From Escherichia coli (GTDB taxonomy: Bacteria; Pseudomonadota; Gammaproteobacteria; Enterobacterales; Enterobacteriaceae): DNA of 64,000 nt. This document shows, one piece after another, positions 30,283 through 44,212 of this stretch. The DNA lies in the NCBI RefSeq assembly GCF_024298765.1, contig NZ_CP101210.1. One strand, written 5' to 3'. The notes beneath the pieces were generated by a model, which saw only the letters and a list, made by a program, of their open reading frames with translations, made no database searches and had not been told where the DNA came from. Numbering within the stretch: the first letter of the stretch is position 1; each line of letters starts with the position of its first letter. The translations under genes and the position numbers were made by a program.

Positions 30283-30670
30283 CCTGACGGCAGGTATCAC
30301 TTACCCGAAGAAGGTAAAGCCCTCAAGAGGCAGTAACTCAGCCAACCTCTCCTCCGGCCACTCCGGCAGACGCGTCAGGACGTCCGTCAGCCAAGCATGT
30401 GGCTCCAGACTGCGGTTCCCAGAAGGCTCATTATCTGTGCCGCGCGGTTCCCGGCCATCAGTGAACCAGCGAACAACCAGGCCTTTCGTCCCATAACGAC
30501 CAGACGGATAGCACGCTCGCAGATATTGTTGTGTGTGCCTTGAAATGCACGATCTTTCCGTCGGTGAAAGTCCGCCCCGGCTAACTCTCGCTCCGACTGG
30601 AAGGACAAGAAGCGGTCCAGGAGGTAACAAAAGGGCTGAATCTCTCCCTGAAACGACTTCTTCAGGAAGT
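30283..30670 (-). pseudogene. IS66-family tnpC 3-prime fragment, frameshifted
   Basis: C-terminal TnpC-like peptides (NNICERAIRLVVMGRKAWLFAGS; HAWLTDVLTRLPEWP) in two frames; GTAAGTGATACC-type IS66 terminus near 30283-30303. Confidence 0.55.
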
Positions 30671-31098
30671 CAACGGGTTATGCGGGCCGTAATGTGAGTG
30701 AACACTGAGCAGCCATCGAAATGCCGTCGAGGGTGCTGACACGCCACAATAACGGGGAAGGCCGACGATGACCGGGAAGAGAGTGAGAAAGGCATCGGTC
30801 ATACCCACCGGGGTTGTGGTGTCAGCATGCATAACAATTGATCGATCGTGCAACAAGAGAAGTCCATAACGATGTCTGTCCGGGTGACGGGCAACAACGC
30901 CTCGCGAGGGGGTGAATCGGTTGTTATGGATGGCAGATGGGGTGTAGTAGTGAAAATACTGAGTAATGTCAGAGGAGCGAAGGCCCCCTCTTGCAGTACC
31001 AGTGTAACATGCAGGAAGAGCCCGGGGATTGCCATCAGCCTCACAACCCCGCTCGAACCGGTTCAGAACCTACAGAAAACACTACAGGAGAAAGCAAA

Positions 31099-32214
31099 GT
31101 GAACCGCCCCGTGTTTCCTGTTTATCATTTTCTGGTCAGTGCCGCGATTCTGGTATTCGTGGTGATTTTCTGGCGGACACACCATCGCGACCACCGTAAC
31201 TGGCTGGCTCTACGGCTATTCGTATTATGCTCTGTAAACCGTTGGCCATTGCGGATGGTTAAAGGAACAGTTGTGGGGACAACTGACACATTACGTGAAA
31301 TGCAGCGTTATGAACAACTGAGTCAGCACGGGGCTGACAACTGGAAAATCCAGCCGGGAGCACCGTTATATGATACGATTGTTATTGTCACTGGTGAGAA
31401 TGTGCGCAGGGATTATATGTCAGTGTATGGCTATCTCGTACCAACCACACCGTGGCTGAATACGGCACCCGGTTTATTTATTGACGATTATACCTTGACA
31501 GCCTCCAGTACAGTGTCTTCCCTGAGCCGGACACTGATTTATGACTATGAGCAGAACCCTGATTCCGGCAACAATGTGGTGGCGCTGGCAGCAAAAGCAG
31601 GATACAGCACATGGTGGATATCCAATCAAGGAAAACTGGGGGAGCATGACACACGCATCTCTGTTATTGCTTCTGATGCGGAGCATGCCACTTTCCTCAA
31701 GAAAGGCAGCTTCGCTTCCCGTAAAACAGATGACAAACTGTTGTTACAGGAAACAGAACGTGCGCTGGCGGATACATCCTCTCCGAAGATAATTTTCCTG
31801 CACATGATGGGTTCTCATCCAAATCCGTGTGACAGCCTTAACTCCTGGCCGAATAATTACCTGGAGCAGTATCCCCGAAAAATTGCCTGTTACCTCGCCA
31901 GCATCAGTAAACTGGATAACTTTCTTGGCCAGCTTGATGGTATCCTTCGCCGGTACTCACATCATTTCGCCATGCTTTACTTTTCTGGCCTTGGGCTGTC
32001 GGTCAGCGACAGTGCCAATCCTGTTCATCATTATGGTCATGTGCAGGGAGGCTACAGTGTGCCACTGATTATTACCGCCAGTGACATAACGTCTCATCAG
32101 CCCGTCAGTAGAAAAATCAGTGCCCGTCATTTCGCAGGTATTTTTCAGTGGATGAACGGTATTTGTACTGAAAATATACCGCCATTCAATCCGCTGACAG
32201 ACGAAGATAATTAA
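31099..32214 (+). CDS. sulfatase-like (alkaline phosphatase superfamily) membrane-anchored hydrolase/transferase, possibly N-terminally truncated
   Basis: GTG start with AGGAG RBS; one N-terminal TM then motifs IVIVTGENVRRDYMSVYGY and YSTWWISNQG...HD resembling phosphoethanolamine-transferase catalytic domains; IS5 abuts the stop codon. Confidence 0.5.
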   Translation: MNRPVFPVYHFLVSAAILVFVVIFWRTHHRDHRNWLALRLFVLCSVNRWPLRMVKGTVVGTTDTLREMQRYEQLSQHGADNWKIQPGAPLYDTIVIVTGENVRRDYMSVYGYLVPTTPWLNTAPGLFIDDYTLTASSTVSSLSRTLIYDYEQNPDSGNNVVALAAKAGYSTWWISNQGKLGEHDTRISVIASDAEHATFLKKGSFASRKTDDKLLLQETERALADTSSPKIIFLHMMGSHPNPCDSLNSWPNNYLEQYPRKIACYLASISKLDNFLGQLDGILRRYSHHFAMLYFSGLGLSVSDSANPVHHYGHVQGGYSVPLIITASDITSHQPVSRKISARHFAGIFQWMNGICTENIPPFNPLTDEDN

Positions 32215-33409
32215 GGAAGGTGCGAATAAGCGGGGAAATTCTTCTCGGCTGACTCAGTCATTTCATTTCTTCATGTTTGAGCCGATTTTTTCTCCCGTAA
32301 ATGCCTTGAATCAGCCTATTTAGACCGTTTCTTCGCCATTTAAGGCGTTATCCCCAGTTTTTAGTGAGATCTCTCCCACTGACGTATCATTTGGTCCACC
32401 CGAAACAGGTTGGCCAGGGTGAATAACATCGCCAGTTGGTTATCGTTTTTCAGCAGCCCCTTGTATCTGGCTTTCACGAAGCCGAACTGCCGCTTGATGA
32501 TGCGAAACGGGTGCTCTACCTTGGCACGGATGCTGGCTTTCATGTATTCGATGTTGATGGCCGTTTTGTTCTTGCGCGGATGCTGCTTCAAGGTTTTTAC
32601 CTTGCCGGGACGCTCGGCGATCAGCCAGTCCACATCCACCTCGGCCAGCTCCTCGCGCTGTGGCGCTCCTTGGTAGCCGGCATCGGCTGAGACAAATTGC
32701 TCCTCTCCATGAAGCAGATTACCCAGCTGATTGAGGTCATGCTCGTTGGCCGCGGTGGTGACCAGGCTGTGGGTCAGGCCACTCTTGGCATCGACACCAA
32801 TGTGGGCCTTCATGCCAAAGTGCCACTGATTGCCTTTCTTGGTCTGATGCATCTCCGGATCGCGTTGCTGCTCTTTGTTCTTGGTAGAGCTGGGTGCCTC
32901 AATGATGGTGGCATCCACCAAAGTGCCTTGGGTCATCATGACGCCTGCTTCGGCCAGCCAGCGATTGATGGTCTTGAACAATTGACGGGCCAGTTGATGC
33001 TGCTCGAGCAGGTGGCGGAAATTCATGATGGTGGTGCGATCCGGCAGGGCGCTATCCAGGGATAATCGGGCAAACAGGCGCATGGAGGCGATTTCGTACA
33101 GGGCATCTTCCATGGCACCGTCGCTCAGGTTGTACCAATGCTGCATGCAGTGAATACGCAGCATGGTCTCCAGCGGATAGGGCCGTCGGCCATTGCCCGC
33201 CTTGGGATAAAACGGCTCGATGACAGCGGTCATATTCTGCCATGGCAGAATCTGCTCCATGCGGGAGAGGAAAATCTCTTTTCGGGTCTGACGGCGCTTA
33301 GTGCTGAATTCACTATCGGCGAAGGTGAGTTGATGGCTCATGATGTCCCTCTGGGATGCGCTCCGGATGAATATGATGATCTCATATCAGGAACTTGTTC
33401 GCACCTTCC
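32215..33409 (-). mobile_element. IS5: IS5 insertion sequence, 1195 bp
   Basis: Terminal repeats GGAAGGTGCGAATAAG (32215-) and CTTGTTCGCACCTTCC (-33409); 326-aa transposase inside; 4-bp flanks TTAA vs CTAG. Confidence 0.9.
32361..33341 (-). CDS. insH: IS5 transposase InsH
   Basis: 326-aa ORF matching IS5 InsH as recalled. Confidence 0.9.
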
Positions 33410-42650: not shown

Positions 42651-43070
42651 ATGGAATTGCAGGACTGGCGAAAAGAACCTCGTAAAAAGTATTCGAATGA
42701 ATTCAAACTTCGTATGGTTGAACTGGCATCACAACCCGGTGCTTGTGTGGTCCAGATTGCACGAGAAAATGGCGTCAATGATAATGTTATATTCAAATGG
42801 CTCAGACTCTGGCAAAACGAAGGGTGTATATCGCAGCGTCTTCCGGTGACAACCACTTCTGACGCAGGCGTTGAATTATTACCTGTAGAGATAACGCCTG
42901 ATGAGCCGAAAGAACCGGTGGCTGCTCTTACTCCGTCTTTATCCACCCAGACTACTGTCAGTGCCAGCTCCTGCAAGGTGGAGTTCCGTCACGGTAACAT
43001 GACGCTGGAAAATCCTTCACCAGAGCTGCTCACTGTGTTGATCCGTGAACTGACCGGGAGGGGACGATGA
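42651..43070 (+). CDS. tnpA: IS66 TnpA (Orf1)
   Basis: 139 aa; ATGA overlap with tnpB. Confidence 0.7.
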   Translation: MELQDWRKEPRKKYSNEFKLRMVELASQPGACVVQIARENGVNDNVIFKWLRLWQNEGCISQRLPVTTTSDAGVELLPVEITPDEPKEPVAALTPSLSTQTTVSASSCKVEFRHGNMTLENPSPELLTVLIRELTGRGR

Positions 43071-43417
43071 TCTCACTCCCGTCAGGCACCCGCATCTGGC
43101 TCGTTGCCGGCGTTACCGATATGCGTAAATCCTTCAACGGACTGGGAGAACAGGTACAGCATGTGCTGAATGATAATCCCTTCTCCGGTCACCTGTTCAT
43201 CTTCCGTGGCCGACGGGGTGACACGATTAAAATCCTGTGGGCTGATGCTGATGGTCTGTGCCTGTTCACCAAACGCCTGGAGGAAGGCCAGTTTATCTGG
43301 CCTGCGGTGCGTGACGGCAAGATATCCATTACCCGCTCGCAACTGGCAATGCTCCTCGATAAGCTGGACTGGCGTCAGCCAAAAACATCCCGTCTTAACG
43401 CACTGACAATGTTGTAA
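43067..43417 (+). CDS. tnpB: IS66 TnpB (Orf2)
   Basis: 116 aa; MISLPSGTRIWLVAGVTDMRKSFNGL typical TnpB. Confidence 0.8.
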   Translation: MISLPSGTRIWLVAGVTDMRKSFNGLGEQVQHVLNDNPFSGHLFIFRGRRGDTIKILWADADGLCLFTKRLEEGQFIWPAVRDGKISITRSQLAMLLDKLDWRQPKTSRLNALTML

Positions 43418-43447
43418 AAATGTCATGGCCGGATTATAAAAACGGTC

Positions 43448-44212
43448 ATGAGTCAGAAATACCTCATTCGGATCACTGAGCTGGAAAGGTTGCTCTCTGA
43501 GCAGGCTGAAGCCCTCCGTCAGAAAGACCAACAACTGAGTCTGGTTGAAGAGACGGAGGCCTTCCTGCGTTCTGCGCTGGCACGTGCCGAAGAAAAGATC
43601 GAAGAAGATGAGCGGGAAATAGAGCATCTGCGGGCCCAGGTGGAAAAACTGCGCCGGATGCTGTTCGGTACCCGTTCTGAAAAACTGCGTCGTGAAGTTG
43701 AACAGGCTGAAGCCCTGCTGAAACGACGCGAACAGAACAGCGATCGTTACAGCGGGCGTGAGGATGACCCGCAGGTTCCCCGCCAGTTGCGACAGTCGCG
43801 TCATCGTCGCCCGTTACCGGCGCATCTGCCCCGCGAAATAAACCGCCTGGAGCCAGAAGAAAGCTGTTGCCCGGAGTGTGGTGGTGAGCTGGATTATCTG
43901 GGGGAAGTCAGCGCAGAACAACTGGAACTGGTGAGCAGCGCCCTGAAAGTGATCCGCACAGAACGGGTAAAAAAAGCCTGTACAAAATGTGACTGCATCG
44001 TTGAAGCACCGGCACCGTCCCGTCCGATAGCGCGTGGTGTCGCGGGCCCGGGGTTACTTGCCCGCGTGTTAACGGGAAAATACTGCGAACACCTGCCACT
44101 GTATCGTCAGAGTGAAATCTTTGCCCGTCAGGGTGTCGAACTGAGCCGTGCGTTACTCTCCAACTGGGTTGACGAGCTCCTGCCATGGAACGTAGCACTC
44201 ACCAATAAATAA
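43448..44212 (+). pseudogene. tnpC: IS66 TnpC, N-terminal part only
   Basis: 254 aa; Zn finger CPECGGEL...CTKCDC, HLPLYRQ motif; C-terminal half missing. Confidence 0.7.

Follow-up and report, generated by a model that had tools for sequence, protein, structure and literature searches.

The IS66-family sequences in the 64,000-nucleotide stretch of Escherichia coli DNA analysed here (the window) are very probably four independent, inherited remnants of different family members residing in a mosaic genomic island, and in all likelihood each of the four was inactivated by a separate, ordinary event. The first-pass annotation had reported IS66-family pieces at three places, and blastn and tblastn searches bear these out, roughly as located. 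The pieces represent ordinary mobile-element decay that is already annotated, rather than a special IS66-driven rearrangement; PGAP already marks IS66 transposase pseudogenes that are frameshifted or incomplete, and the significance beyond correct annotation is small.

Members of the IS66 family carry tnpA, tnpB and tnpC in that order, terminal inverted repeats (GTAAGCG... in the ISEc23/43 group) and an 8-bp target duplication. In two of the pieces, which we call copies A and B, intact tnpA and tnpB genes are followed by the 5′ part of tnpC, and the other two, fragments C and D, contain tnpC 3′ ends only. Inverted repeats at both ends are found in copy B alone; copy A has the left end only, and in C and D just a degenerate right end is left. 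The complete set of TnpC domains (LZ_Tnp_IS66, zf-IS66, DDE_Tnp_IS66 and DDE_Tnp_IS66_C) is present only in the intact references, in which DDE_Tnp_IS66 extends by Pfam across residues 187-470 (ISEc49) and 196-486 (ISEc43). Copy A TnpC keeps the leucine-zipper and zinc-finger domains together with 94 of the ∼284 DDE residues, out of frame, and copy B TnpC keeps the same two domains, 47 DDE residues and the last 12 amino acids; the NCBIfam transpos_IS66 matches, at 115 and 139 bits, fall below the 180-bit cut-off. Judged from their sequences, copies A and B belong to the IS66 family by descent and are not predicted to be functional transposases. The primary papers on the family are Han et al. 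2001 and Gourbeyre et al. 2010, both in the reference list of PMC6778807.

Copy A and its fusion to tssG

Copy A (39975-41651, minus strand) is the left 1.68 kb of ISEc49, as located by blastn and reference alignment. It is 98.3% identical over 1,681 nucleotides to the intact ISEc49 of E. coli U1 (L003); the alignment shows 29 differences and one indel. Both have the same left end (IRL end at 41650/41651), and the intact tnpA (41238-41564) and tnpB (40859-41248) genes, both on the minus strand, encode products 100% and 97.7% identical to those of ISEc49, but tnpC codons 281-521 and the right end are missing from copy A, which also has a 1-bp frameshift at codon 219. Its tnpC (codons 1-280) runs from 40813 down to 39975 on the minus strand, with the 3′ 726 nucleotides and the right end of the IS gone. 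The frameshift is a 1-bp deletion at tnpC nucleotide 656 (window ∼40158), and because of it the copy A open reading frame stops at 40067. ISEc49 homology nonetheless reaches position 39975, which is tnpC nucleotide 840 in codon 280 of 521, and the real break thus lies 61 codons beyond the frameshift.

On the other side of this break is a type VI secretion (T6SS) remnant (37528-39979, plus strand; alignment and profiles) extending from tssF nucleotide 92 (codon 31) to tssG codon 270 of 362. It is 97.6% identical to positions 11639-14090 of L008, an intact T6SS cluster, and its profile matches cover TssF positions 28-597 of 600 and TssG positions 2-252 of 300. A three-way alignment places the joint, junction A, in a 5-bp microhomology, TGCCC, common to tssG and ISEc49 tnpC (39975-39979), with copy A tnpC codon 280 fused directly to tssG codon 270. 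In a search with this junction the tssG-side matches cover query positions 1-90 and the ISEc49-side matches positions 86-171, and the junction itself was found in 58 of 5,426 genomes, at one locus in each. The loss of the copy A 3′ part and the truncation of tssG are one and the same deletion, and this is the only truncation that shares an event with an IS66 copy.

Had a transposase-mediated adjacent deletion or inversion been responsible, its endpoint would coincide precisely with an IS terminus. Because junction A is internal to the IS and contains a 5-bp microhomology, it argues for illegitimate recombination and not for such an event. In the order of events that we favor, ISEc49 would first have inserted into an IS2-like element; a deletion from tnpC codon 280 to tssG codon 270, joined at the 5-bp microhomology, probably in a RecA-independent manner, would then have eliminated the right end of the IS and, with it, the T6SS genes downstream; and a separate 1-bp deletion would have shifted the frame at codon 219. 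None of the matches inspected has the pre-deletion state, a full ISEc49 beside a complete tssG-tssJ segment, and we therefore infer the size of the deletion and its single-step nature.

Copy B, an internally deleted ISEc43/ISEc23-like element

Copy B (42566-44242, plus strand; blastn, end sequences and tblastn) measures 1,677 bp and has an inverted repeat at each end (GTAAGCG... at 42566, ...CGCTTAC at 44236-44242). At the DNA level its identity is 93% with ISEc43 and 92% with ISEc23 (L004, L005), with which copy B shares the same GTAAGCG... ends and the same tnpA-tnpB-tnpC order. The tnpA (42651-43070) and tnpB (43067-43417) genes are intact, and tnpC (43448-44212; all three on the plus strand) has an in-frame 849-bp deletion, with blastn returning two collinear pieces that correspond to reference positions 201-1825 and 2649-2732. 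Codons 243-525 of 537 are gone, but the final 12 codons with the native stop codon remain, as does the right inverted repeat. The deletion junction lies inside the repeat TCCAACTGGGTTGA (44159-44172, plus strand). In the reference elements ISEc43, ISEc23 and IS682, TCCAACTGGGTTGA is at tnpC nucleotide 712 and TCCAACCGAGTTGA at nucleotide 1561, and the spacing of these two 14-bp imperfect repeats is 849 nucleotides, a multiple of three. Slippage or illegitimate recombination at the imperfect direct repeats, presumably a RecA-independent microhomology joining as for copy A, would account for the in-frame loss of 849 bp, which removed nearly the whole DDE catalytic domain. Because both inverted repeats, tnpA and tnpB are kept, copy B is a non-autonomous derivative. 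Internally deleted, non-autonomous IS derivatives are a general class, in which, as in copy B, both ends are kept and the catalytic domain is deleted; copy B differs from them in showing no evidence of multiple copies or trans-mobilisation, being seen at one locus only.

The deletion junction is present in 55 of the 5,426 genomes at one locus each, and not at several unrelated loci with target duplications; a junction-specific search and context look-up for trans-mobilisation returned this single locus (55 genomes; 10 contexts), and the joint from the deleted tnpC through the right inverted repeat (IRR) into the adjacent module was unchanged in all 10 contexts examined. The 8-bp target duplication is present in the controls, ISEc43 in L004 (CTTGGACA on both sides) and ISCro1 in L009 (AGATGACC), but absent at copy B, whose left flank is GTCGTATC and right flank TGAAACGA, and a search turned up neither a target duplication nor an unoccupied insertion site for this copy. 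The left flank varies between genomes, and in one of them (L020) it is exchanged exactly at IRL. Together, the absence of a duplication and the L020 exchange show that some IS-end-associated or IS-IS recombination took place around copy B; the missing duplication and the variable left flank are the only trace of IS-end-associated rearrangement. The 131-bp spacer to the left of copy B has no relationship to nikB; it is similar to intergenic DNA of the island near 22.1 kb.

We consider it unlikely that copy B is functional, either as a DDE-less TnpC (the leucine-zipper and zinc-finger part with the native C-terminus) that regulates or inhibits ISEc23/43 in trans, or as an element mobilised in trans. 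The deletion is in frame with tnpA, tnpB and both inverted repeats intact, the exact 254-residue protein occurs on 835 contigs, and related full-length elements are found in most E. coli genomes, such that a dominant-negative regulator of the abundant ISEc23 and ISEc43, or a trans-mobilised element, is conceivable with low probability. Nonetheless, each genome has copy B at a single locus, and the same right-hand module always accompanies it; this distribution is what clonal inheritance of the island would give, without any sign of selection or movement, and an in-frame outcome is expected by chance in one deletion of three.

In strain AH19B041 the end of a different IS66-family element lies 3 bp from the copy B insertion point, and both lie at the nikB 3′ end/terminator. 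Such proximity is a hint of local target preference, and the idea that the two ends reflect a preference for the nikB 3′ end or terminator has, in our estimation, only a slight chance of being correct.

The tnpC breaks and the arrangement of copies A and B

Copies A and B had been described as different IS66-family members in inverted orientation, and this is correct: they are on opposite strands, one is 98.3% identical to ISEc49 and the other 93% to ISEc43 and 92% to ISEc23, and their TnpC proteins are only 31% identical. The accompanying claim that the truncation points of the two tnpC genes nearly coincide does not survive alignment to the references, in which the breakpoints differ both in position and in kind; the copy A reading frame ends at a frameshift with homology continuing to codon 280 of 521, and copy B has an internal in-frame deletion. 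Expressed in ISEc43 coordinates, copy A breaks at residue 289 and copy B at residue 242, a separation of 47 codons (∼140 nucleotides), and two random breaks in a 1.6-kb gene would fall this close with P ∼0.17. The shared truncation point is an artefact of reading open reading frames, and similar open reading frame lengths in two transposase pseudogenes need not signify a shared breakpoint.

This breakpoint mapping largely refutes the idea that IS66 transposition activity, or a fragile site after the PLYRQ motif, cut both tnpC genes equivalently along with the T6SS and ‘sulfatase-like’ genes, which we regard as very unlikely. Although both breaks are within the first third of the DDE domain, copy A is fused at its break to the truncated tssG, and copy B has no target duplication, the 47-codon separation is compatible with chance, and a terminal loss in A is set against an internal deletion in B that keeps the IRR. 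Moreover, both junctions are inside the IS with microhomology and neither is at a terminus, junction A being at tnpC nucleotide 840 and both copy B endpoints inside tnpC; the only exchange ending at IRL is that of the copy B left flank between the window and L020. Of the suggested IS66-mediated inversions or deletions, then, the single event shared by tssG and copy A stands, but the left T6SS break (tssF nucleotide 91, window 37528) has no contact with IS66 sequence and neither do the two breaks of the ‘sulfatase-like’ gene. The adjacency of A and B is also a consequence of IS2-like recombination, as follows.

The ISEc49 insertion host is an IS2-like (IS3-family) 3′ fragment (41652-42434, plus strand) that matches IS2 TnpB profile positions 117-301 of 301. 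This fragment is a chimera of two copies with a crossover at ∼42240-42260: the segment from 41655 to ∼42245 is identical to the first IS2-like fragment of strain 222, and the segment from ∼42250 to 42434 is identical to the right end of the second IS3-family element of that strain. In genomes that lack the IS2-like recombination, such as strain 222, A and B are about 14 kb apart. Recombination of the two IS2-like copies, probably homologous, deleted about 12.6 kb and made A and B close inverted neighbors, and it is to this event alone that we attribute their inverted adjacency; the short A-B layout is also seen in ECJXMCRH7, 8GC and others. The present gene order of the island has been shaped by the IS2-like and IS5 elements, and not by the IS66 copies.

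Fragments C and D and their flanking sequences

Fragment C (about 30064-30662, minus strand; blastn and tblastn) is an IS66-family right-end remnant that contains TnpC residues ∼420-521, frameshifted near 30411-30429, and the 3′ non-coding end. No clear ISEc49 IRR emerged from a search for inverted repeats in L003, so the right limit of fragment C can be placed only approximately. By blastn it is 78-81% identical to the right part of ISEc49 and 85% to an O157 tnpC remnant, and tblastn matches TnpC residues 428/443-521; its 109-residue open reading frame (30301-30630) is the K-12 gene yjgZ and clusters with ‘Uncharacterized protein YjgZ’. The fragment and both of its flanks are 99.3% identical in K-12 and recur in 1,531 complete genomes, always at a single locus; fragment C is the old yjgZ remnant that K-12 also carries.

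The ‘sulfatase-like’ gene is a phosphoethanolamine-transferase pseudogene (31112-32214, plus strand; NCBIfam CptA/EptA-type matches) representing codons ∼105-471 of a 500-codon intact paralogue, with homology to the L013 gene across 31112-32214. Its 5′ break (31112) is 450 bp from fragment C, the intervening sequence being unassigned, and its 3′ break (32214) was made by IS5 (32215-33409, minus strand; inverted repeats at 32215 and 33398-33409; NCBIfam IS5 transposase), which has no target duplication (flanks TTAA and CTAG). This IS5 joins the K-12-like segment to the T6SS-remnant segment, and collinearity with other genomes changes at 33410. Fragment C and the transferase pseudogene correspond to the K-12 yjgZ/yjgX pseudogene pair, with 99.3% identity and the same junctions; K-12 differs in having IS4 (insG) at 29801-29812 and in keeping the transferase 3′ end, followed by IS2, whereas in the window IS4 is absent and IS5 lies at 32215.

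Repeated IS sequences crowd the region, and collinearity across all 21 kb was seen with none of the complete genomes in the collection; both could favor false junctions assembled from collapsed or chimeric IS repeats. Misassembly had been raised as a concern, but the junctions occur at 100% identity in independent complete genomes (A/tssG in 58, the copy B deletion in 55, and C in 1,531), a recurrence that renders an assembly artefact extremely unlikely, with the exception of the IS5-mediated join at 32215-33409, the only one that is unmatched.

Fragment D (47916-48104, minus strand; tblastn, DNA identity and end comparison) is a heavily decayed ISCro1-like right end, consisting of a degenerate IRR (GTAAGTTG...) and TnpC residues ∼486-537 broken by stop codons. 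It has 44% tblastn identity to TnpC residues 486-537, 83% DNA identity to the ISCro1 3′ end, and a weak Pfam DDE_Tnp_IS66_C match on a 48-residue open reading frame. That two fragments are halves of one element split by inversion, in which case C or D would supply the right part that A has lost, has next to no probability: although A lacks a right end and both C and D are right ends that share its strand, ISEc49 identity is 98.3% for A and 78-81% for C, D is ISCro1-like with no tblastn match to ISEc49 TnpC, C with its flanks exists in K-12, which does not have copy A, and the codon ranges leave gaps (A stops at codon 280, C starts near 420 and D near 486), such that identity and coordinates rule out C or D as the missing half of either A or B.

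Between the right ends of B and D is a low-GC module (44243-47915) encoding an MFS transporter, RidA, a sugar-phosphate isomerase and an HTH regulator, with the final ∼10 codons of a nikB-like relaxase gene and one half of a terminator in front of it. It is 93-95% identical to an accessory module located between nikB and trbC in IncI1-type plasmids, for which an empty plasmid site is also seen, and the MFS-RidA module is plasmid-derived, with an IncI-type nikB tail. We also considered whether it is a discrete mobile unit, with the limits of plasmid and chromosome homology set by the IS66 ends; it is simpler to suppose that IS insertions interrupt a homology that would otherwise run into nikB and the last 105 bp of the module.

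IS66-family pieces in the island

The window consists of E. coli genomic-island DNA, in which an ORF listing and tblastn searches with the TnpA, TnpB and TnpC proteins of intact reference elements identify four IS66-family pieces, none of which encodes a complete transposase. Copy A (39975-41651, minus strand) has ISEc49 homology and copy B (42566-44242, plus strand) matches ISEc43 and has both terminal repeats; tblastn further reveals a C-terminal TnpC remnant near 30.3-30.7 kb (fragment C) and a decayed one at 47916-48104 on the minus strand (fragment D). The first-pass annotation had described three IS66-family fragments, which correspond to copies A and B and fragment C, but it lacked fragment D. 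Its view that A and B represent distinct family members in inverted orientation is borne out: copy A matches an intact element named ISEc49 by RefSeq at 98.3% identity, copy B has 93.4% identity to ISEc43 and 92.4% to ISEc23, and when the reference TnpC proteins of ISEc49 and ISEc43 are aligned only 169 of 546 columns are identical. IS66-family elements reportedly have three genes, inverted repeats of ~20-30 bp and an 8-bp duplication; the intact control elements studied here agree with these features, and all four pieces belong to the family by descent (ISEc49, the ISEc43/23 group and the ISCro1 group).

Fragment C is 78-85% identical in DNA sequence to the right parts of IS66-family elements and represents TnpC residues ~420-521 with a frameshift. 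The segment is present together with both flanks in K-12 MG1655 (99.3% identity) and in 1,531 genomes, and its 109-aa ORF clusters with K-12 YjgZ; fragment C is the known yjgZ remnant. In RefSeq the pieces are already annotated as IS66 transposases that are frameshifted or incomplete, and the whole set is a case of ordinary decay of IS elements within a mosaic island. Close by, K-12 carries IS4 (insG) with a 12-bp duplication at the position of 29801-29812, where the window is in the uninterrupted, pre-insertion state. Fragment D shares 83% identity with the ISCro1 3′ end and has a degenerate right repeat beginning at 47916 (GTAAGTTG...) and a TnpC tail containing stop codons; strain 222 carries an IS1203 within this fragment, at 48033-48036.

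Breaks within copies A and B

Homology of copy A to ISEc49 runs from 41651 down to 39975, and thus beyond 40067, where the first-pass annotation had placed its end. Copy A differs from intact ISEc49 at 29 positions and by one indel, the loss of an A at tnpC nt 656 (codon 219, window ~40158), and it is this shift of frame that produces the stop at 40067. The true end of homology is at tnpC nt 840 (codon 280 of 521), where tnpC is joined directly to tssG. Window 37528-39979 has a 97.6% match in a genome whose T6SS cluster is intact, and a three-way alignment shows that five bases at 39975-39979 (TGCCC) are common to tssG and ISEc49 tnpC. The fusion therefore cuts tssG at codon 270 of 362 and has cost the element 726 nt of tnpC and its right end; TnpA and TnpB (100% and 97.7% identical to the reference) are intact. 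At its left end copy A adjoins an IS2-like element of which the 3′ part is present (IS2 TnpB profile positions 117-301 of 301), suggesting an earlier insertion of ISEc49 into that element.

Copy B gives two collinear blastn matches to ISEc43, one of window 42566-44185 with reference 201-1825, and the other of 44159-44242 with reference 2649-2732, comprising the last part of tnpC and the right inverted repeat. Its termini (GTAAGCG at 42566 and CGCTTAC at 44242) are the same as those of the intact references, so it is not terminally truncated. Instead it has an in-frame internal deletion of 849 bp (283 codons), bounded by TCCAACTGGGTTGA (tnpC nt 712) and TCCAACCGAGTTGA (nt 1561), repeats carried by ISEc23, ISEc43 and IS682. 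The resulting ΔTnpC of 254 aa joins residues 1-242 to the final 12 residues, which are followed by the native stop, and by tblastn tnpA and tnpB are intact.

The proposal that both tnpC genes break off at nearly the same point, just after PLYRQ (residues 207-211 in ISEc49 and 217-221 in ISEc43), does not survive alignment. ISEc49 residue 280, the break in A, aligns with ISEc43 residue 289, and the deletion in B starts after residue 242; the breaks are thus 47 codons apart and different in kind, and two random breaks would fall this close in a 1.6-kb gene with P ~0.17. Given the limits of the Pfam DDE_Tnp_IS66 domain (187-470 in ISEc49, 196-486 in ISEc43), 94 of its residues are left in A, out of frame, and 47 in B. 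The similar ORF lengths are a coincidence arising from the frameshift in A. Both breaks lie inside the elements at short homologies, a perfect 5-bp one in A and, in B, an imperfect 14-bp repeat that contains perfectly matching blocks of 6 and 5 bp, and they probably arose by microhomology-mediated illegitimate recombination or replication slippage, without transposase action.

Misassembly, which the first-pass annotation had proposed checking, is excluded for these junctions by their recurrence across genomes and contexts: the tssG/ISEc49 junction is present in 58 of 5,426 complete genomes and the copy B deletion junction in 55, at one locus each, and the exact 254-aa ΔTnpC protein occurs in 835 contigs.

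Surroundings of copies A and B

Copy B is flanked by unlike octamers (GTCGTATC and TGAAACGA) and so lacks a target duplication, whereas the controls have the expected 8-bp duplications (ISEc43 CTTGGACA, ISCro1 AGATGACC). The junction from ΔtnpC through the right inverted repeat to the adjoining module is identical in 10 of 10 distinct contexts read, and the left flank is variable, being swapped exactly at the left inverted repeat in one genome (L020) and recombined within the IS in another (L021). The missing duplication and the variable left flank would fit either recombination between IS copies or an event at an IS end, and with one locus in each of the 55 genomes (of 5,426) and ten contexts we see no sign of movement of copy B. 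The 131-bp spacer to its left contains a 24-nt exact match (42493-42516 with 22123-22146) to DNA downstream of an intact gene for a 224-aa protein (22181-22855), and is thus island-type intergenic DNA.

The right inverted repeat is followed immediately by the end of a nikB-like relaxase gene (its last ~10 codons) and by half of a terminator. The low-GC segment that follows (MFS-RidA-sugar-phosphate-isomerase-HTH) shares 93-95% identity with an accessory module that IncI1-type plasmids carry as an insertion in their nikB-trbC terminator, and we conclude that 44243-47915, which is bracketed by two inward-facing IS66-family right ends, is plasmid-derived. Strain AH19B041 has a different truncated IS66-family element near the insertion point of copy B (L010 5974-6000, compared with window 44236-44250), in opposite orientation and with its left inverted repeat 3 bp away; IS66 insertion may be locally biased towards the nikB 3′ end/terminator.

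About 14 kb lies between A and B in strain 222 and in many other genomes, and this interval contains an AAA-domain protein gene, a group II intron and IS3-family elements. The IS2-like fragment between them in the window (41652-42434) is a chimera of two diverged IS3-family copies with a crossover at ~42240-42260: 41655-~42245 is identical to the first IS2-like fragment of strain 222, and ~42250-42434 to the right-hand end of another IS3-family element, located 12.6 kb farther along. The chimera indicates that the short layout, common to ECJXMCRH7, 8GC and others at 100% identity, arose via recombination between IS2-like copies, probably homologous, and it explains why, compared with strain 222, ~12.6 kb has been deleted, including the AAA-domain protein gene, the intron and further IS3-family copies. 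Strain 222 has an additional IS1203 at 42434/42435. Elsewhere in the window a group II intron reverse transcriptase/maturase (23550-25073) lies within an IS3-family element and an IS1203 copy (25665-26527) ends at ~26523-26527, marking this stretch as an accumulation zone for mobile elements.

T6SS remnant and transferase pseudogene

The suggestion that IS66 events truncated the T6SS genes and a 'sulfatase-like' gene holds for tssG, which is fused to copy A, but not for the other breaks, which have no adjoining IS66 sequence. On the left the T6SS genes break at tssF nt 91 (37528), and just upstream of the remnant a truncated plus-strand ORF (37328-37549) is a fragment of the 224-aa protein whose intact gene is on the minus strand. 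The 'sulfatase-like' ORF is a phosphoethanolamine transferase pseudogene that keeps codons ~105-471 of an intact 500-codon paralogue. Its 5′ break (31112) is 450 bp from fragment C, and its 3′ break (32214) lies at the border of an IS5 (32215-33409) with 4-bp flanks TTAA and CTAG and hence no target duplication. This IS5 links two genomic contexts, a K-12-like nanY-nanX-yjgZ-yjgX segment and the YagK/T6SS-remnant segment, and collinearity across it is seen in none of the collection's complete E. coli genomes. The 450-bp stretch between fragment C and the pseudogene (30663-31111, GC about 54%) is conserved in K-12, and no homology is recognisable for it.
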